From assembly GCA_934277545.1 (NCBI GenBank), contig CAKQUG010000005.1, positions 33,588 through 97,587 on the forward strand: a stretch of DNA of 64,000 nucleotides, written 5' to 3'. Positions within the stretch are counted from its first letter, which is position 1, and every line of letters starts with the position of its first letter. This document shows, piece by piece, positions 27,580 through 61,231 of this stretch. Source of the DNA: an uncultured Alphaproteobacteria bacterium (lineage in GTDB: Bacteria; Pseudomonadota; Alphaproteobacteria; RF32; CAG-239). Under the pieces are notes generated by a model, which searched no databases, had not been told where the DNA came from, and worked only from the letters and a program-made list of their open reading frames with translations. Made by a program: the position numbers and the translations under genes.

Positions 27580-27717
27580 TGTAACCTCAATTTTTTATCA
27601 ACTGGCAGAGAGTATAACATAGGCTGACATAAAATAAAAGGAAAAATATTTACAAAAATACAAAAAAAGTATTGACTCATAAAAAAATATACTGTAATAA
27701 CGTAGTGTAATTTTTAT

Positions 27718-27804
27718 GGGGTTGTGGCGGAATTGGTAGACGCGCCAGACTCAAAATCTGGTGGCAGCAATGTCTTGAGAGTTCGATTCTCTCCGGCCCT
27801 ACCA
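27718..27804 (+). tRNA. tRNA-Leu (anticodon CAA), class II with a long variable arm
   Basis: 87 nt. D-arm GCGGAATTGGTAGACGC. Anticodon stem-loop CCAGA-CTCAAAA-TCTGG gives anticodon CAA. T-arm GAGAG-TTCGATT-CTCTC, followed by the 3' acceptor strand CGGCCCT, discriminator A and an encoded CCA. The acceptor stem GGGGTTG/CGGCCCT needs three G-U pairs. Confidence 0.8.
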
Positions 27805-27810
27805 TAAAAC

Positions 27811-27850
27811 TAAAAACACTCATTCGAAAGAATGGGTGTTTTTTTGTTTT
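27811..27850 (+). terminator. Rho-independent terminator after tRNA-Leu
   Basis: Hairpin aacactcattc-gaaa-gaatgggtgtt followed by TTTTTTTGTTTT. Confidence 0.75.
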
Positions 27851-27988
27851 AAAGCCGGAAGAAGCGAACTCGATAAGAGAGTTCGAAGCGGATAGCCGGC
27901 AAAACCGAGCAATTGCGATGGTTGAGCCGTTGCGACGCGAAAGGCACTGCTCGCAGCAAACTTGTTTGCAAGAGTAGGAATATAACAA

Positions 27989-28050
27989 GCTCTCCGGCCC
28001 TACCATAAAATTAACACACTCATTCGCAAGAATGGGTGTGTTTTCGTTTT
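27989..28050 (+). repeat. Imperfect direct repeat of the tRNA-Leu 3' end plus terminator (second copy)
   Basis: ctctccggccctaccataaaa at 27990-28010 is identical to 27789-27809, the T-arm 3' half, acceptor strand and CCA. It is followed by a diverged copy of the terminator hairpin (acactcattcgcaagaatgggtgtgttttcgtttt versus acactcattcgaaagaatgggtgtttttttgtttt). Confidence 0.85.
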
Positions 28051-43862: not shown

Positions 43863-44576
43863 ATGTTATACATTTTAACAGGTTTTGTATTCGGCTGTTT
43901 AATTCCCTATTTGGCACGTCGTCTCGGCAAGTTGATGCCGGCAACCATGGGCTATATTCTGCTCAAAATTTTTATCCCTCAGCACTATATGCCGTGGAGC
44001 AAACTGAAAAATGATTTTGAATATATGCAATTATTCAAAAGATATATGATGAGAAGTTTGGGCTGGGGTATTTTTTGCGCCGCCGTTACATATTTATTTG
44101 CCGTAAATTTTGACCCGTATTACACCGGCTGGTACATTGCTTTTTTATGGATTATGCTGCTGCTTGTGGAAATTGACAAGCGCTTTATGCTGCTGCCTGA
44201 TGTTTTGACTTTACCACTATTGGTGCTGGGTTTCGGCTATGCGACAATTAACGGCGTGTGGCTGGACACGATTGACCCGCAGCTTATAAGCAATGCACAA
44301 AACAGTTTTATGGGTGCCTGCGCCGGATATTTAATGCCGGTTGTCGCCAGTATGTTTTTAGTTTGGAAATACCCGGACGCATTCGGCGGCGGCGACATTA
44401 AACTTTTGGCGGCTATCGGCGCTTGGGTCGGCTTGGGACCTATTTCCTACATTTTGCTCGGTTCCTGCATTTTGTTTGCTCTCGGCTGCTTAATCAAAAA
44501 GCAAAGAGTCGGTCCGTTCGGTCCTTCCATTGTCTACGCCACTCTGCTGGTTTGCATTTTCTTGTTCGGAATCTAG
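43863..44576 (+). CDS. Type IV prepilin peptidase (A24 family)
   Basis: 237 aa and polytopic. Both catalytic Asp motifs are present: EIDKRFMLLPD and GGGDIKLLAAIGAWVG. No N-terminal Cys-rich Zn module. Confidence 0.8.
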   Translation: MLYILTGFVFGCLIPYLARRLGKLMPATMGYILLKIFIPQHYMPWSKLKNDFEYMQLFKRYMMRSLGWGIFCAAVTYLFAVNFDPYYTGWYIAFLWIMLLLVEIDKRFMLLPDVLTLPLLVLGFGYATINGVWLDTIDPQLISNAQNSFMGACAGYLMPVVASMFLVWKYPDAFGGGDIKLLAAIGAWVGLGPISYILLGSCILFALGCLIKKQRVGPFGPSIVYATLLVCIFLFGI

Positions 44577-44595
44577 CAAAAATCAGGTGATTGCA

Positions 44596-46419
44596 ATGAC
44601 TGATCAAACAAAAATAATCTTGAAACATAATATAGAATTATCTTTATCGTCAAATGCGCCCGCAACAGATGTAGCAGCGTTGATTTGTGATTTTTTCGCA
44701 AATTATTATAAAGATGATGATGACCGCCAATACGCGCTATTAATATTTAATGAAATTTATAAAAAATATAGTAAAGATGAATTACCTGCTATTTTTTTTA
44801 GTGAGTTTGTAAGACTTTATGTCAATATTCTGCGTGAAAATTCATCAATGATGTCACCAGATACTATTGATTTTATCTGCTCTAATATAATTGACTTTGC
44901 AGATATTGCTATCAAAAAAAATCCTAAAAGCAATGTACCTTATCTTTATCTTGCCAGATTTTATAATTTAAACATCAACTCAAAACTGCTTAACGAGCTG
45001 GATACAAAAAAATTAACTAAACAATATTTTCTTAAAGCTATTAACCTTGGCAGTAAAAATGCTGTAAAAGAATACAATTCTTTTTTGAACACTCTTAGCG
45101 CCGCAACATCTTTTGATTTTCTAAACGTGAATATAAACCTAAACAAAATTGTTGATGCCCTCTTAAACAATATTGATAAAGACCGTTTTTCATTATTGCT
45201 TTATGGACCTGAAGGCAGCGGTAAAAGTATATTTGCTCAGCATTTGATAGGAAAAATAAAAGATTTTTACAATCAACACAATTTAACTTTCAAAATTGTA
45301 AAATTATCTCCGTTTAACTTTGATGAGAATTTTAAAAATATATCAGAAACAACTACTTTGATACAAATAGACGATAATTTCGGAATTGCTCTAAAAGATA
45401 TAAAACACTGCTATTTACTGCTTAATAAAATAAAAAAACAAACCAACAATATCATTGTTTCCATAAACTCTCTGGATAATCTGCCCAAAGATTTTATTTC
45501 TAATTTTTTGTTTAAGATAAAATTCAATTATATGAATCAAGAACAAGAAGAAGCCGCTTATGAGCTATTTTTCAACAACAAAGCCCCTGAAGAGTTAAAA
45601 TCTATAAGCGGAATGGTTATCAGTGATTTTAACCGTATTCAAAAAACTTGTTCTGTTCTAAATATAAATAAAAATGCCGATATTCTTAATATGATAAAAG
45701 ATGAAATGTTTTTCAAATTTGGCAATAACAACTACAACAAGCCGATTATTCAGTTTGATTCTAAAATGATAAATTGCGATACAGATGTTGAAGTTTTGAT
45801 TGAAAAACTGAAATATTATGACCCGAAATATCCGTTTTCGATTTTAGTTTATGGTCCGCCGGGAACTGGTAAAAGTTATTTTTTGCGTTATTTAGCTCAA
45901 AACATTGGTATTTCAACCGTTGAAAAGAAACCAGCAGAGATGTTTTCTAAATATCAAGGACAACCGGCAAAAGAAGTTTTAAATATCTTTAAAGAAGCTC
46001 AAGACAAAAATGCCATGCTTATTATTGATGAAATAGAAGGCATTATTTCTGAACGCGGCAAAGATTCCGGCGAAAATAAATGGAAAAGCGATATGACAAA
46101 CTCCTTTTTATCTTCATTAGAAAGTTGCACCGTACCGTTTGCCGGCACCTCAAACCATTTAAAATTTGTTGACAAGGCCATTTTACGGCGGTTTGTCTTT
46201 AAACTGCATTTTGATTATTTAACTACAATGCAGGCAATTTATGCCTTTGAAAAAATATTTGGTTTAATTGCACCATATGAAAAAATATCAAAATTAAAGC
46301 ATCTAACCAGCGGTGATTTTTCTATAGTTAAACGAAAAGCTCTGATTTTGGGCTGCATAAACGACGCAGAAAAATTGTGTGATATGCTAAACGATGAAAT
46401 AGCTAAAAAAGAATTATAA
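44596..46419 (+). CDS. Tandem AAA+ ATPase with an N-terminal helical (Sel1/TPR-like) region; strongly AT-shifted composition
   Basis: About 607 aa from ATG 44596, after AGGTGA. The first, degenerate ATPase module has LLLYGPEGSGKS and hhhhDD (LIQIDD). The second is a classical AAA module: ILVYGPPGTGKSYFLRYLA (Walker A), MLIIDEIEGI (Walker B) and ILRRF (second region of homology). The listed ORF from 44530 is an upstream extension that overlaps the peptidase gene. Confidence 0.75.
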   Translation: MTDQTKIILKHNIELSLSSNAPATDVAALICDFFANYYKDDDDRQYALLIFNEIYKKYSKDELPAIFFSEFVRLYVNILRENSSMMSPDTIDFICSNIIDFADIAIKKNPKSNVPYLYLARFYNLNINSKLLNELDTKKLTKQYFLKAINLGSKNAVKEYNSFLNTLSAATSFDFLNVNINLNKIVDALLNNIDKDRFSLLLYGPEGSGKSIFAQHLIGKIKDFYNQHNLTFKIVKLSPFNFDENFKNISETTTLIQIDDNFGIALKDIKHCYLLLNKIKKQTNNIIVSINSLDNLPKDFISNFLFKIKFNYMNQEQEEAAYELFFNNKAPEELKSISGMVISDFNRIQKTCSVLNINKNADILNMIKDEMFFKFGNNNYNKPIIQFDSKMINCDTDVEVLIEKLKYYDPKYPFSILVYGPPGTGKSYFLRYLAQNIGISTVEKKPAEMFSKYQGQPAKEVLNIFKEAQDKNAMLIIDEIEGIISERGKDSGENKWKSDMTNSFLSSLESCTVPFAGTSNHLKFVDKAILRRFVFKLHFDYLTTMQAIYAFEKIFGLIAPYEKISKLKHLTSGDFSIVKRKALILGCINDAEKLCDMLNDEIAKKEL

Positions 46420-52168: not shown

Positions 52169-52262
52169 AATGAGCCTCTTAAAAAAAACTTTTATTCATG
52201 CCCGTATGATAAAACAAAAATGTTTACAAATAAATAAAATTTACTCTAAAAAATATAAAATA

Positions 52263-53678
52263 TCAGCGTTCAACAGACTTTTGCAATGAAGATAAAGCTG
52301 TTAAACCTTTTTGTTGAGTTTGAGTAATGGTGTTGCCCTCTTTTTTTACCGGTTCATTTATAGCCGCTGAAATACGTCCGCTTAGTTGCAGCATTTTTTT
52401 AGGATTTGACAGTGCTTTAGCCAATGTTTTTTGATCTTTTTTCTGCGACCCCGGCAAAGCATCGCTTATTTGCTTACCCTCATCCAAACTGAATCCTGTT
52501 CTTTCTTTAGTTATTTTATTTGCCTCAATCATAAAATTTTCTGAAAGTTGAAAATCTTCTTTAGGCAGATACTGAGAAAGTTTACCAACTTTTATACCGA
52601 GTTTTTGTATTTCCGGATTTTGATCAAAAGAATCAAACATTTTGTCTTTGCGTTGAGAATAGTCCTGCTCATTTCCAATTAACAAACCGGCAGCATTTAC
52701 GTCATTTGATAAAGAAACTCGTCTCATAGTTGAAGGAACTTGTTCTTTCATATAAATTTCCAGATAATTTTCCTTCCACATTTTTATTGTACCATTTACC
52801 ATAAGCTCTTTTGCTTCATGACTATCTGGATTAAGGCCTCCGGCGATTGCTTCTTTGTAAAACGAAAACTCTCCACCCAATACATCAAATTCTTTAAGTG
52901 CTTCTTCTTTAGATGCTCCCGCAGATAAAGATTCTTTATATTTATGATTTGCAACAACCAGCTCAGCCACATTTGCCGAACATTCATCCCAACAATTTAA
53001 CTTTCCATATTCTACGGCATTCAAGCCCGGTGCATACGCATTATTTAAATCATTTATTTTATGTTGATTTTCGTGAGTTATAAAACTAATTTCTTCTGAA
53101 GGTGTCGCGGTAAAACGGTTATATTTTTCTATAATTTGCTGCGCTTGTTCAGGAGTATAATTTTTACTTTCTTTCAATTCATTAAGTTCTTCTGGTGTTA
53201 AATTAAACGAATTTATTATAATATTTTTTTCAGTAGATGAATATCCTCCCACTGTAACGCCACCCTTCTCATTAATATCGTCTAAAAAAGATTCCAAATC
53301 TTTTTTGTGCGTTCCGTCTTTTTCAGCATTGTTAAATGCTTGTTGCTGTTCTTTGCTATATTCTTTTTTAGCTGTTTTAGTAGAAGCCTGCATATTCTTG
53401 TCACATACCGCATTATCAACAATCGTATATTGTTCTCCATTTTCTCTGACAAATTCAAACGCTTTGCCATTTTCTAAAGAAATTACAAGGGTATTACTTT
53501 TTCCTTTTTGGTAGTCTTTAACTCTTTGTAATGCCTCTTTCTTTCGTGCATCTATTTGCTCTTTAGTATAGCTTTGTGCTTGAGCGGCTGTCGGAGATGC
53601 CAACACTAATGCTAAACTAAGCGTTGTACATTTAGATTTCAAAAACTTATTCATCGATTCAAGCGACATTACATCCAC
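52263..53678 (-). CDS. Hypothetical secreted protein with an HExxH motif (possible zinc metallopeptidase)
   Basis: 471 aa. Signal peptide (MNKFLKSKCTTLSLALVLASPTAAQA); the true start may be one of the internal Met codons at 53672 or 53654. The single HExxH motif is FITHENQHKIN. The protein is Lys/Glu-rich with no other recognizable domain. Confidence 0.45.
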   Translation of the reverse strand: MDVMSLESMNKFLKSKCTTLSLALVLASPTAAQAQSYTKEQIDARKKEALQRVKDYQKGKSNTLVISLENGKAFEFVRENGEQYTIVDNAVCDKNMQASTKTAKKEYSKEQQQAFNNAEKDGTHKKDLESFLDDINEKGGVTVGGYSSTEKNIIINSFNLTPEELNELKESKNYTPEQAQQIIEKYNRFTATPSEEISFITHENQHKINDLNNAYAPGLNAVEYGKLNCWDECSANVAELVVANHKYKESLSAGASKEEALKEFDVLGGEFSFYKEAIAGGLNPDSHEAKELMVNGTIKMWKENYLEIYMKEQVPSTMRRVSLSNDVNAAGLLIGNEQDYSQRKDKMFDSFDQNPEIQKLGIKVGKLSQYLPKEDFQLSENFMIEANKITKERTGFSLDEGKQISDALPGSQKKDQKTLAKALSNPKKMLQLSGRISAAINEPVKKEGNTITQTQQKGLTALSSLQKSVER

Positions 53679-53744
53679 CCTTTTAATATGCTATTAAGTA
53701 AGTATAACAGATTTATAAACTTTATGCAATCAGTTATAAATCAT

Positions 53745-53783
53745 AAAACGCAAAAACAGCACTCGTTTTCACGAGTGCTGTTA
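53745..53783 (-). terminator. Rho-independent terminator for the 53804-54277 gene
   Basis: Hairpin aacagcactcg-ttttc-acgagtgctgtt with an A-run on the plus strand, which is a T-run for the minus-strand transcript. Confidence 0.7.
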
Positions 53784-53803
53784 AAAATTTGCTTAGAAGC
53801 TGA

Positions 53804-54277
53804 TTAGAAATCCATGTCTTCAGTACCAGCCTCACTGTCGCAAACGGCAGCTACCACTTCCAGGCTGAGCGGGGAAAGACGCTTGCGTGGCTTGCGAGGA
53901 GCAACTGATAACGCTTGATAACGCTTGAAGCCGTTGACCGTGTCCTTAAGTCCATAGGTTACCCCCTTGATGCGGAAATTGCCGAGAACCTCAGTCTCCG
54001 AAGCAATAACCGACGAGTCGACAATCTTGGCAGAACCTGTCTGGATATCCACGATAGCGTTGAGGTTCTTTGAATGCTTGATGAACGCGTAGAACGGCAC
54101 AGAGGCATTCTTCTTGAACATCGGCACGCGCAGTACGATTTTTACCATCTGGGGCTGAGCTTCGCACGAAGAAAGGTCCACGAGATTAGGATTCTTCTTG
54201 TTAAAATCTTCAAAAGCCTTGTTAGCCTTGATGTTAGCAACCATAGTGTTCAACTTCTTTTCAGCAATAGTACTCAT
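53804..54277 (-). CDS. Hypothetical 157-aa protein with GC-shifted composition (probable horizontal acquisition)
   Basis: MSTIAEKKLNTMVANIKANKAFEDF...KRYQALSVAPRKPRKRLSPLSLEVVAAVCDSEAGTEDMDF. This ORF is visibly GC-richer (about high 40s %) than the surrounding roughly 40% and uses different codons (GAC, CTC, CGC, AAC). It has its own AT-rich promoter region (54278-54370) and its own terminator. Confidence 0.55.
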   Translation of the reverse strand: MSTIAEKKLNTMVANIKANKAFEDFNKKNPNLVDLSSCEAQPQMVKIVLRVPMFKKNASVPFYAFIKHSKNLNAIVDIQTGSAKIVDSSVIASETEVLGNFRIKGVTYGLKDTVNGFKRYQALSVAPRKPRKRLSPLSLEVVAAVCDSEAGTEDMDF

Positions 54278-54370
54278 AGTAATAATATTTAAAACGTTAA
54301 TAATAAATTCAATACCAATTTATATAGCATATCTTTTTGGCAAAAGCAAGCATAATTTGTCAAAAAATAT

Positions 54371-55993
54371 TTATTTTTTACATTTTTTCGTCAAATCAAG
54401 TGATTGCGCATATTCATCAGCGCTTATTCCGCCTATTCCCAGCAAAGTATGAAAAACATTATCGTGTGAAACGTTTTCTTTTTCGATAGATTTCAGACAT
54501 TGTTTGTCCAAATTAAGTGTTTTTAATACCGAATCGGTTGACCACATAAAAAACGGAACGTGTTTTTGCTCTTTCGGCGCAATAACGTACGGTGCGGAAT
54601 GTAAATAAACATTATATTCTCCCAATGATTCCCCATGGTCTGAAACATAGAACAGCACGCTGTTATATTGTGTGTATTGAGTTTGCAATAAACTTATTAT
54701 GTCTGCCAAATTTTGGGAGGTATAAAGAATGGTATTGTCATACGTATTTACAATTTCTTCGGTAGTGCACATATTCAGTTTTTCGGTGTTGCAAACAGGT
54801 GCGAATCGGGTAAATTCTTGCGGGTAACGCTTATAATATGTAGGTCCGTGGCTTCCGGCTTGGTGCATAACCAAAACCGTATTTTGAGCCGGTTCAGACA
54901 GTTGTGTTTTCATTTCATCGGTTAAAACAGTATCAAAACAAGTACCGGCGCCGCTCTGACAAGGACGATATGTTTCTACTCGGGTGCAGACACCTTTGCA
55001 ATCACTGTTATTTTCAAGCCAAACTACACGCCAATTATTCTTTTTAAAAATATCAAGTACATTTTCGGTATAATTCAAGCTGCCGTTATCATATTCTGTT
55101 CTGCTATCCTTAGAAAACATACATGGCACGGAAACAGCTGTTGAGGTGCCGCATGACGTCGTATTTTCAAAATTTATGATATTATCGGAATAAGGCATTA
55201 AAGGATTGTTTGTACCGCGCTCATAACCGTTTAATGAAAAATTTGCGGCGCGGGCAGTTTCTCCGACCACAAAAACAATCAACATAGGTTTGTCGTTGTT
55301 CCAATATTTTGTAAAATGCGAATCCAAACCGATAGGTGTAAATTCATGGTTAGCACGCATATTGTGTTTGACGGTAGAACTTACGGCGCCGATATAGTTT
55401 ACGGGAATAAGCAAATATTTAACAGGTTTATTGTTGCGTATAAATTGTGCAACGTCTTTGCTATTCGGGACAATAATCGCGGCAAATATCAATAAAAACA
55501 GAGCAAACAAACCACCGCGCTGTTTTAGTATGCTTGCTTCCGTAAAATTAACACGACTTATAATAAACGCAGGTATTCCGCCTAAAAGCAAAATATAAGC
55601 AAGCAATGTAAAGTTCAGTAATTCCGCGGTCTCATGCAGATTTGTTTGCAAAACGTTGCGCAACATTTCTTCATCAACGGCAACGTGATAATTTTTTACA
55701 AAATAAAAAACACCGCTGTTTATTAACAAAAAAATCACAGATAACGGTTTAACCGTCCATTTCCAAAAAAGCAACAAGCTGCAAACGGTTAATAGTATCC
55801 AAAGCACAAAAAATGCGCCTATTGTAAACATTGTACTTTGGCTTAAATCATATATTTTTTCAAAAAACACACAATTAAAAGCAAGCAAAGTGTACAGCAT
55901 ATAAAAAATGCCGTACACTTCAATATTCAGAGAAAATGAGCGGAATAACTGCGGTTTAGCCATAAAAATTCGCCCTTTTTCACTGTTAAGCAA
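54371..55993 (-). CDS. eptA: Lipid A phosphoethanolamine transferase (EptA/MCR family)
   Basis: 540 aa. Five N-terminal transmembrane helices and a periplasmic sulfatase-fold domain with [17 protein letters not shown] and [11 protein letters not shown]. The start is probably the internal MAKPQ (55963); the longest ORF overlaps the alaS stop. Confidence 0.85.
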
Positions 55994-59359: not shown

Positions 59360-61231
59360 ATGGCTAAAGCAGAAGAAGGCACAAAGATTGATTTTTTGGG
59401 CGGTAATAACGAGTCAAGAATCGGCGGCAACAGTCTGTTAATTGAACACACCGAAGAGGGCGAAGGCGTTAAAAGGGTTATGATTGACCTGGGCGCTTTA
59501 TTTCCACCTGAATGGACCGGATTAGATTCCATTATTCCGGATGTCCGCACGTATTTGGGAAAAGAAAGCGAACCGGCGGAAAAACCTTTGGACGCCATGT
59601 TTATTTCTCACTGCCACGAAGACCATATCGGCGGTTTGGTGCATTTAGCCCGTGCCGGTTATAAATTTCCGGAAATTTACACCAGTTCCTACACCAAAGA
59701 ACTTTTAAAAACAGCTTTCAAAGAAGGGCATGTATCGGTTGAAAATCAGCCGGAAATTAAAACGGTCAGCGAAGGTCAAACTATTGATGTTGCCGACAAT
59801 GTTCATGTCAGCCCGTTTAACGTTTCTCACTCCACCGTCGGCGCCATGGGTTTCCATATTCTGACAACCGTCCGCGGACGCGTCAGCGCCGGAATAATCG
59901 ACCCTGGCGATTATCGCATGGGAGAATCTAAAGTAGGCCCTGGTTTTGAAGAAGATAAATTTAAGGAGTTTTTGAAAGATAAACCGGTTACACATGTTTT
60001 GCTCGATTCCACTTCAAGCGACAGCACCGACGAATATTTAGTAGACTTTGACCACGCAGTTGAAAACACTCTGGAACAAGTAAAAAAACACCCTGAAAAA
60101 CAAGTTATCTCAGCAGTTATTTCTCGCAGTATTCAAAACATGGCAATTGATTTGGAAGCGGCTAAGCAATCTAACCGTAAAGTTTTTATTGACGGATATT
60201 GGGCCAAACTGGCGTTTCTGGCAATGCAACGCAGCGGCATACATGATTATGATGATGTTGTGTATAAAAGCGAAGATTTGAAAAACGCCAACGCTAAGGC
60301 TTATTTGGCTAAATATGACCGCGGCGAACGCTATATTATTCCAAGCGGCGCTTTTGCCGAATCTAAAAAAGGCATGAAATCTGGACTATATAAAATGTCA
60401 GAACAGCAAAAAGTTATGCTGGATAAAAACGGCAAAGTGAAAGGCAACAGCAAAGGCGAAGCCGGACACCCTGACTTTACGGTTGACTCTATGACTTTGA
60501 TTCTTGCCCGTCAGCGCTGTATCGAGTCCATTAACGGTAAACAAGTTCGCGCCATGTATAATCGTTTGGCGGCTCTGGGCGCAACCATAATTGAAAATCG
60601 TTCCGGCAACAACACCGGCAAATTTGAAACTGCTTTAATGCAACGCACCGGACATGCCGTCCGTTCGGAAACCAAGAAATTTATTGAACTGATTGTAAAC
60701 AATCGTAAAAACGGCAGCAAGTTGGTATTTATCCCGATTCACGGCGATGTTCATCAGCTGGCAAACACTGCGAAAGTTGTGAGAGAAGCCGGCGGCGAAC
60801 CTTCTATTTGCCACAACGCCGATGAAATTAAAGTTTGGGCCGGCGGCACGAAAAAACTGGAACAAAAACCGATAGAAGAACAACGCTGGATTGCCGTACA
60901 GGGCGAAACATTAAACGGCTATGCAGGAGGAGCAAGCCAATACACCTATACTTTGGTGGACAAAGATTTCAGCAAAGTTGCAGATTTGCAGGTTGTTCGT
61001 GAAGAGGCGACTCCGGCAGTTGCCAGAGATTACGCTTCAAGAGCATTGGCTCAAGCCCGCGATGATGAAGACAACTACTATGTTCCGTCTCGTAAAGAAA
61101 TTCATGCGCAAAAAGAAAAACTCTCACGCAAGAAAAAGAAAGAACTTGTCCGTAAAGCGGCTAAGGCGGCCGGACTTATTGATGAAAAAGGTCTGCCAAT
61201 CGGTTTGAAAAAAGGCAGTTACGACAGATAG
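59360..61231 (+). CDS. rnj: Ribonuclease J (metallo-beta-lactamase / beta-CASP)
   Basis: 623 aa. The HxHxDH motif is FISHCHEDHIGGL, followed by a beta-CASP region and a C-terminal Lys-rich tail. Confidence 0.85.
   Translation: MAKAEEGTKIDFLGGNNESRIGGNSLLIEHTEEGEGVKRVMIDLGALFPPEWTGLDSIIPDVRTYLGKESEPAEKPLDAMFISHCHEDHIGGLVHLARAGYKFPEIYTSSYTKELLKTAFKEGHVSVENQPEIKTVSEGQTIDVADNVHVSPFNVSHSTVGAMGFHILTTVRGRVSAGIIDPGDYRMGESKVGPGFEEDKFKEFLKDKPVTHVLLDSTSSDSTDEYLVDFDHAVENTLEQVKKHPEKQVISAVISRSIQNMAIDLEAAKQSNRKVFIDGYWAKLAFLAMQRSGIHDYDDVVYKSEDLKNANAKAYLAKYDRGERYIIPSGAFAESKKGMKSGLYKMSEQQKVMLDKNGKVKGNSKGEAGHPDFTVDSMTLILARQRCIESINGKQVRAMYNRLAALGATIIENRSGNNTGKFETALMQRTGHAVRSETKKFIELIVNNRKNGSKLVFIPIHGDVHQLANTAKVVREAGGEPSICHNADEIKVWAGGTKKLEQKPIEEQRWIAVQGETLNGYAGGASQYTYTLVDKDFSKVADLQVVREEATPAVARDYASRALAQARDDEDNYYVPSRKEIHAQKEKLSRKKKKELVRKAAKAAGLIDEKGLPIGLKKGSYDR

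Follow-up and report, generated by a model that had tools for sequence, protein, structure and literature searches.

The X157 gene, an open reading frame (ORF) of 157 amino acids at positions 53804–54277 (minus strand) of a 64,000-nt stretch of DNA from an uncultured alphaproteobacterium (contig CAKQUG010000005.1; the whole stretch is hereafter called the window), has long resided on the chromosome of a particular clade of uncultured gut Alphaproteobacteria, to which it is specific, and is not an inserted passenger. The ORF and its translation had been pointed out in an earlier description made from the letters of the window alone (the sequence-only reading), which suspected a recent horizontal insertion of a mobile, phage-derived, or plasmid-derived passenger. 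The comparison with related genomes leads us to regard a different history as highly probable: X157 (the name is used here for both the gene and the protein) is a resident, hypervariable gene that exchanges alleles and has an intrinsic bias for G/C-ending codons. Taken together with the function proposed below, the whole explanation of its evolution and function stands at slightly better than even. The novelty lies in a protein family not described before and in the unusual way it has evolved; the system itself is not of a new kind.

Genomic position and codon usage of X157

The distribution of X157 was analyzed by a profile-guided scan using one genome per species. Nine loci were found, all in metagenome-assembled genomes (MAGs) of uncultured gut Alphaproteobacteria, and exact look-ups added further contigs. 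The related genomes and contigs with the X157 locus or homologues are labeled L001–L027. In about 18 of them, X157 occupies the slot between alaS/eptA and asd. The gene order in the genus of the window is g623, TspO, alaS, eptA, X157, (HExxH), asd, and msc, where the parentheses denote a gene for a protein with an HExxH motif that is present in only some genomes. The order from alaS to msc is kept in L001–L005, L007, L014, L016, L019, and L024–L026. A relative with 29% GC (L008) has alaS, X157, and asd, and L013 has X157, asd, and msc. In L020, L022, and L027, eptA is followed by X157 and a small partner ORF, and in L027 then by asd; the X157 protein of L027 is 35% identical to that of the window. 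Other contexts were found only in L009 and L010, and there too the neighbors are housekeeping genes, without mobility genes. A check for absence of X157 from related genomes found no empty site: every relative that has the locus carries the gene at the corresponding position. No relatives of X157 were found in IMG/VR, the INPHARED phages, the PLSDB plasmids, BFVD, or PADLOC. The ORF lists contain no mobility genes near X157, the neighbors being eptA, asd, and alaS; no tRNA gene is adjacent, as the only one in the window lies at 27718; and the short direct repeats that might flank an inserted gene were searched for and gave only weak AT-rich chance matches.

Three of the MAGs in this set carry taxonomic labels from other groups (L002, Bacteroidaceae; L003, [Ruminococcus] gnavus; L004, Eubacteriales). 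These labels are likely mis-assignments because the three loci have the gene order of the window, their alaS, asd, and msc proteins are 91 to 97% identical to those of the window, and, at the nucleotide level, the flanks of L003 share 95 to 99% identity with L001, an Alphaproteobacteria MAG.

The sequence-only reading had described X157 as GC-richer than its surroundings and as using a different codon set, and both points were borne out. The GC content of X157 is 0.481, versus 0.345 for the HExxH gene and 0.371 for eptA. The total GC by itself is not extreme, as it is matched by 6% of 474-nt windows, but the GC content at third codon positions (GC3; 0.582) is the highest among the approximately 50 ORFs of the window (0.24–0.55 for the others). 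The codon usage deviates even more clearly: the scaled chi-square against the synonymous usage of the window is 1.23 for X157 and 0.57 for the next gene, and the mean codon log-likelihood is −1.335, compared with −1.014 ± 0.070. Lys is encoded by AAG in 16 of 17 cases (94%), whereas the AAG fraction in the other genes of the window is 0.145 ± 0.093 with a maximum of 0.33. The corresponding values are 75% versus 17% for TTC and 36% versus 4% for CTC. The compositional deviation is therefore real, although the gene itself is syntenic and conserved in relatives.

The same shift to G/C-ending codons recurs in the orthologues. In 15 of 18 lineages, the GC3 of X157 is higher than that of the flanking genes, for example, 0.42 versus 0.17–0.20 in L008, 0.44 versus 0.28–0.29 in L027, 0.49 versus 0.29–0.31 in L010, 0.55 versus 0.33–0.39 in L009, and 0.61 versus 0.42 in L013. 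The correlation between the GC3 of X157 and that of the host is weak (r = 0.38). The preference for AAG and TTC is kept across allele groups between which the synonymous divergence (dS) is saturated. Because the shift recurs in orthologues with saturated synonymous sites and in hosts ranging from 29 to 45% GC, it is not the un-ameliorated signature of a recent arrival, which would not survive saturated divergence; for it to persist, there must be either selection at synonymous sites or an ongoing import. The bias for G/C-ending codons is thus a property of X157 itself and is maintained across hosts. The usual inference from foreign composition to foreign origin fails for X157 since its unusual codon choice persists throughout this range of hosts, and the gene is a case in which a compositionally foreign look together with an own promoter and terminator need not mean a recent arrival.

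The most likely cause of the bias is selection on synonymous sites tied to the expression of X157. Several observations weigh against this view. The preference of X157 for AAG, TTC, and CTC is not shared by the genes used as proxies of high expression: in groESL, 11% of the Lys codons are AAG and none of the six Phe codons is TTC, and AAG is used for 4 of 13 Lys codons in the gene of ribosomal protein L25. The bias is also weak in the X157 alleles of L007, L020, and L022. The preference for GCT, GAC, and AAC is common to X157 and groESL/L25, and the S15 gene in L020 is intermediate (AAG, 4 of 9). A host bias for highly expressed genes therefore explains the codon usage of X157 only partly. GC-biased gene conversion, a candidate because the locus recombines, was rejected as a sufficient cause of the high GC3: the HExxH gene recombines together with X157 and yet ranks lowest in GC3 in the window, and the difference in AAG usage (94% versus 15%) seems far too large for it.

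Other origins of the composition have to be weighed against a resident gene with its own codon bias. A recently inserted phage- or plasmid-derived passenger, with foreign composition not yet ameliorated, would agree with the strongest codon usage outlier of the window, with a gene that has its own promoter and terminator, and with a block that has moved between lineages. We nevertheless consider it very improbable. X157 is found in the same slot even where alaS is only 76% identical or X157 itself only 35% identical, and the insertion is largely refuted by this synteny; the lack of relatives in viral, phage, and plasmid collections, of flanking repeats, and of mobility genes, and the persistence of the shift in orthologues with saturated dS, also speak against it. 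Alternatively, X157 may be resident but its window allele imported by homologous recombination from a GC-richer relative, so that the import explains the composition. Allele swapping at the locus is demonstrated (see below), the GC3 of X157 is nearly independent of that of the host, and the strength of the bias varies between allele classes. However, the approximately 18 host contigs all stay at or below 45% GC, and in 15 of them the flanks are poorer in GC than X157, so that no plausible donor was seen. The HExxH gene, which is transferred together with X157, has the lowest GC3 in the window (0.24), and saturated dS between the allele groups should have erased the signature of a donor; this origin is accordingly unlikely. 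A second function of the same DNA or RNA, as an antisense gene or a structured RNA, has a negligible probability. A codon-aligned antisense frame is open over 100 to 145 codons in several orthologues, but it is broken in the window (68 codons), L001, L002, L008, and L022, and an overlapping antisense gene was rejected because the frame is not consistently open. The X157 mRNA does not fold better than shuffled sequences (z = −0.58), and a search of Rfam gave only chance-level hits.

Allele exchange and the transcription unit

Strains and species swap X157 alleles, and they do so through homologous recombination of blocks of 2 to 3 kb. Apart from recombined patches, the conspecific contig L014 and the window share 98 to 100% identity over about 16 kb. 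Between 55400 and 52200, the nucleotide identity is 68 to 89% with sharp bounds, and the HExxH gene is missing from L014. The strain-variable recombination block delimited by this comparison (52200–55400) contains the 3′ two-thirds of eptA, X157, and the HExxH gene. The asd of the two strains is 100% identical, whereas their X157 proteins are 83% identical. A second exchange is evident from discordant groupings. For asd, msc, eptA, and TspO, L001 groups with L002/L003 (proportion of synonymous differences, pS, 0.08–0.23; 0.39 for L001 and L002 in TspO), and the window is the outgroup to L001–L003 (pS 0.50–0.65 for these four genes and 0.43–0.65 for the flanking genes overall). For X157, L001, which is another species, groups with the window (pS 0.08 and dS 0.085, compared with a dS of 0.65–1.47 in the flanks). 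Sliding identity places the exchanged tract at about 54350–52250; it includes the whole X157 unit from promoter to terminator as well as the HExxH gene. This tract of the window, nested in the strain-variable block, is 90 to 99% identical to L001, whereas the flanks of L001 match L003 at 95 to 99%. In L026, asd is 96 to 97% identical to that of L004/L005, but no other X157 allele exceeds 51% identity to the one found there. Overall, X157 alleles are 45 to 97% identical in backbones in which asd is 89 to 100% identical. The whole-gene dN/dS of X157 (0.12–0.16) indicates purifying selection, which is looser than in the flanks (0.03–0.09). DNA at the locus has thus moved horizontally, as the sequence-only reading supposed, but by replacement of alleles in a 2- to 3-kb block and not by insertion of X157.

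Hypervariable recombining loci such as those for capsule/O-antigen, pherotype, and immunity also have diverged alleles in a fixed slot, homologous recombination in the flanks, and a discordant phylogeny. These loci usually encode surface, secreted, or conflict functions, whereas X157 looks cytoplasmic and is under purifying selection overall; the pattern of allele diversity seen in X157 is normally typical of surface or conflict loci. X157 is also a convenient strain marker for these poorly known gut Alphaproteobacteria, on which a literature search for the RF32 group from the gut gave nothing specific.

Two further short recombination patches were observed. In the alaS segment 57100–58000, the window is 85 to 93% identical to L014, compared with 98 to 100% otherwise. 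At 59816–60015, 200 nt of a gene with a metallo-β-lactamase fold are 97% identical to L001 in surroundings of about 85% identity.

X157 appears as a self-contained transcription unit with its own promoter and terminator, as already proposed by the sequence-only reading. The 93-nt upstream spacer (54278–54370), which had been called extremely AT-rich, has a GC content of 19.4% and belongs to the lowest 0.5% of 93-nt windows. The predicted sigma-70 promoter, read from the sequence (54321–54349, minus strand), is conserved in 13 loci and consists of a −35 element TTGCTT (54349–54344), a 17-nt spacer, and an extended −10 element TGcTATATA (54329–54321). TTG of the −35 element and TG.TA of the extended −10 element are invariant in the 13 loci, including homologues of 30 to 40% identity and those in other genomic contexts. 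The promoter motif has a single occurrence in the window; a simple promoter scanner missed it, because TTGCTT/TATATA is just below its threshold of 9 of 12. The spacer holds a palindrome, TTTTGcCAAAA (TTTTGCCAAAA), which could serve as an operator.

The transcript probably begins with an AU-rich 5′ leader (54278–54314, minus strand, with a putative start) without a Shine–Dalgarno (SD) sequence. The leader contains the conserved motif TTATTATTAAC at 54306–54296, about 20 nt 5′ of the ATG, which occurs once in the window and whose ATTA.TAA is invariant in the 13 loci. An SD-like 4-mer is present at −20 to −4 in 35 of 40 window ORFs, but in neither X157 nor any of its orthologues. At the other end, the strong hairpin noted in the sequence-only reading was recovered by a hairpin search as an intrinsic terminator, AACAGCACTCGT-GAAA-ACGAGTGCTGTT followed by TTTGCGTTTT (53745–53782, minus strand). 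It has a perfect 12-bp stem (53782–53755) with six G–C pairs, a 4-nt loop, and a T-run. Equivalent hairpins with altered stem sequences lie 3′ of X157 in L001–L005, L007, L008, L013, L014, and L018. X157 would thus be expressed as a monocistronic unit, from the near-consensus extended −10 promoter through the AU-rich leader lacking an SD sequence to the hairpin terminator. The putative regulatory region is better conserved than the protein, being kept down to 30% protein identity, which argues for strong or specific control of X157 expression.

Two possible resemblances of the leader may be mentioned. In the window, 54296–54314 (minus strand) reads TGAA-N7-TTAAC, which differs by one mismatch from TTAA-N7-TTAAC, the alphaproteobacterial CtrA box. 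The leader motif of L006 reads TTAACTTTA, like the "epsilon" translational enhancer of T7 gene 10; a literature search on this enhancer sequence yielded nothing usable.

Predicted structure and possible functions of X157

The X157 family is undescribed and unannotated; its fold is predicted with confidence and has no close solved structure. Clustering at 90% identity gives 18 family clusters, and at 50% identity there are 54 of them among 1.84 billion representatives; the sole name attached to any member is "hypothetical protein." In keeping with the sequence-only reading, which could name no family, X157 matched none in Pfam (E value up to 10), NCBIfam, PHROGs, PADLOC, or the PDB by sequence profile. 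The protein consists of an N-terminal helix (residues 11–28), a β core (43–125), a basic linker (APRKPRKRL, 126–136), a C-terminal helix, and an acidic tail with EDMDF at its end. The AlphaFold2 model, based on a 62-sequence alignment (pLDDT 95 and pTM 0.80), is a single domain with a helix at 11–28, eight strands between 43 and 125, and a helix at 139–152. The motifs PFYAF.K and F.I.GVTY..KDT.NG..RY are invariant in the family alignments. Foldseek with this model gave nothing at E ≤ 1e-3, and Hfq appears in the list. The Lys-rich N terminus, the RKPRKRL patch, and the acidic tail that had been picked out earlier are all present: residues 1–136 have an isoelectric point (pI) of 10.1 and residues 137–157 a pI of 4.05. 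In the family, the median core pI is 9.8 and the tails are net acidic in 28 of 37. The terminal Phe occurs in 14 of 62 family proteins, eight of them with an acidic motif before it, and the E(I/M)DF ending recurs in members that are only 20 to 45% identical to the window protein. X157 is thus predicted to be a cytoplasmic protein whose small β-barrel core is basic and Sm/SH3-like and is followed by a basic KPR linker and, at the C terminus, by an acidic tail.

Three known groups invite comparison. Hfq/LSm proteins have no sequence similarity to X157 (Pfam gives nothing, and hhalign against Escherichia coli Hfq gives a probability of 0.05%). X157 is twice as long and has three extra strands, the conserved GVTY..KDT.NG..RY hairpin, and the C-terminal helix. 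WYL domains (CapW, DriD, PafBC, and BrxR) are sensor modules in transcription factors with a helix-turn-helix (HTH) motif, whereas X157 has neither HTH nor WCX, does not match the Pfam WYL family, and gives large root-mean-square deviations. Single-stranded DNA-binding proteins (SSBs), such as bacterial SSB and T7 gp2.5, combine a basic core that binds nucleic acids with a linker and an acidic tail whose last residue is Phe. X157 resembles them in this architecture, although only by analogy: no oligonucleotide/oligosaccharide-binding (OB) fold was detected in X157, and many family members lack the tail motif. The tip of the SSB tail is a docking site for partner proteins. The acidic tail of X157 with its terminal Phe may likewise bind a partner or bend back onto the basic core, in the manner of the SSB and Hfq tails.

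Based on the predicted fold class, the charge pattern, and the promoter, we tentatively propose that X157 may bind nucleic acids and be abundant in the cell, acting as an RNA chaperone or as a nucleoid-associated protein. The sequence-only reading had named nucleoid-associated and anti-defence proteins as look-alikes; the former guess, extended to nucleic-acid binding, remains plausible, and nothing links X157 to a mobile element, phage, or plasmid. Several points weigh against our proposal as well. There is no sequence-family match, and hhalign against E. coli Hfq gives nothing. A high expression of X157 is suggested by the quality of the putative promoter only. Moreover, the hypervariability would be unusual for a housekeeping nucleic-acid-binding protein and is a better fit to proteins of genetic conflict.

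The pattern of alleles and the co-varying neighbors make such a conflict role the main rival for the function of X157. X157 would then resemble immunity, antitoxin, or defence proteins and be subject to diversifying or frequency-dependent selection. It would be paired with the secreted HExxH protein in the genus of the window and with the small partner elsewhere, and in many genomes it would remain as an orphan. The extreme divergence of X157 in near-identical backbones and the repeated exchange of alleles agree with this, as does the co-variation and co-transfer of X157 and HExxH alleles. In distant lineages, the small ORF lies directly 3′ of X157, P0034 looks like a fusion of both, and the promoter of X157 looks constitutive. 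On the other hand, neither X157, the HExxH protein, nor the partner ORF matches PADLOC or Pfam, and the whole-gene dN/dS is that of purifying selection. The HExxH protein has a signal-peptide-like N terminus and X157 has none, which would place them in different compartments; X157 lies upstream of the HExxH gene with a terminator between them; most genomes carry X157 without either neighbor; and the core of X157 is basic with strongly conserved motifs. We therefore consider a conflict role doubtful. In a broader and likewise improbable form, X157 would found a new β-barrel family of gut Alphaproteobacteria at a recombination hot spot, and its ancient allele classes (45–97% identity) would be shuffled between species for a conflict or self/non-self role with the HExxH protein or the RGxRNH-tailed partner. 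If this were true, the leader without an SD sequence and the host-independent G/C-ending codons would represent dedicated expression control. X157 is a candidate for either a major nucleic-acid-binding protein or a conflict module of gut Alphaproteobacteria, and nucleic-acid binding is the function that we prefer.

Neighboring genes and other features of the window

The neighbors of X157 are those recognized in the sequence-only reading. The eptA product matches Pfam EptA_B_N and Sulfatase. The HExxH gene (52263–53669, minus strand) encodes a protein of 468 amino acids with a signal-peptide-like N terminus and an invariant H199-E-x-x-H203 that reads HENQH. Its family comprises 13 clusters, and the protein has no match in Pfam, NCBIfam, or the PDB. 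The gene is present with X157 allele group A only (the window, L001, L018, and L019). Homologues of 50% identity are found in the same slot in the sister species L024–L026, and the gene is absent in L002–L005, L007, L008, L013, L014, and L016. It is thus the HExxH gene, not X157, that is the presence/absence element of the slot, and it travels with X157 alleles. The right junction of the HExxH insert (52240–52262, GAACGCTGATATTTTATATTT) is similar to part of the X157 terminator (53745–53775), namely its descending arm with the T-run, in the form found in genomes without the insert. An imperfect direct repeat may therefore have been involved when the HExxH gene was gained or lost.

The small, fast-evolving partner ORF (47–104 amino acids) lies directly 3′ of X157 homologues in distant lineages: 2206–2454 in L020, 5028–5300 in L022, 1734–2045 in L010, 1811–1954 in L023, 1276–1590 in L027, and about 8500–8730 in L009. 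Its product has a hydrophobic N terminus, an SPxPPP motif, acidic and then basic stretches, and a C-terminal (R/K)GxRN(H/K). A homologue search with the partner ORF returned the query alone, Pfam gave nothing, and no homologue is present in the window. The 213-amino-acid protein P0034 appears to be a fusion of X157 and the partner.

Elsewhere in the window, a gene at 44530–46419 (plus strand; GC 0.30 and GC3 0.27), located between groES and a peptidase A24 gene, encodes an AAA/KAP-type ATPase of 629 amino acids. It is absent from the conspecific contig L014 and looks like a strain-specific insertion; the protein gave only partial AAA-domain matches, to the IetA models of PADLOC. The sole tRNA gene of the window is that of tRNA-Leu(CAA) (27718–27804, plus strand), and the 109-amino-acid ORF that overlaps it (27677–28006, minus strand) is probably spurious.

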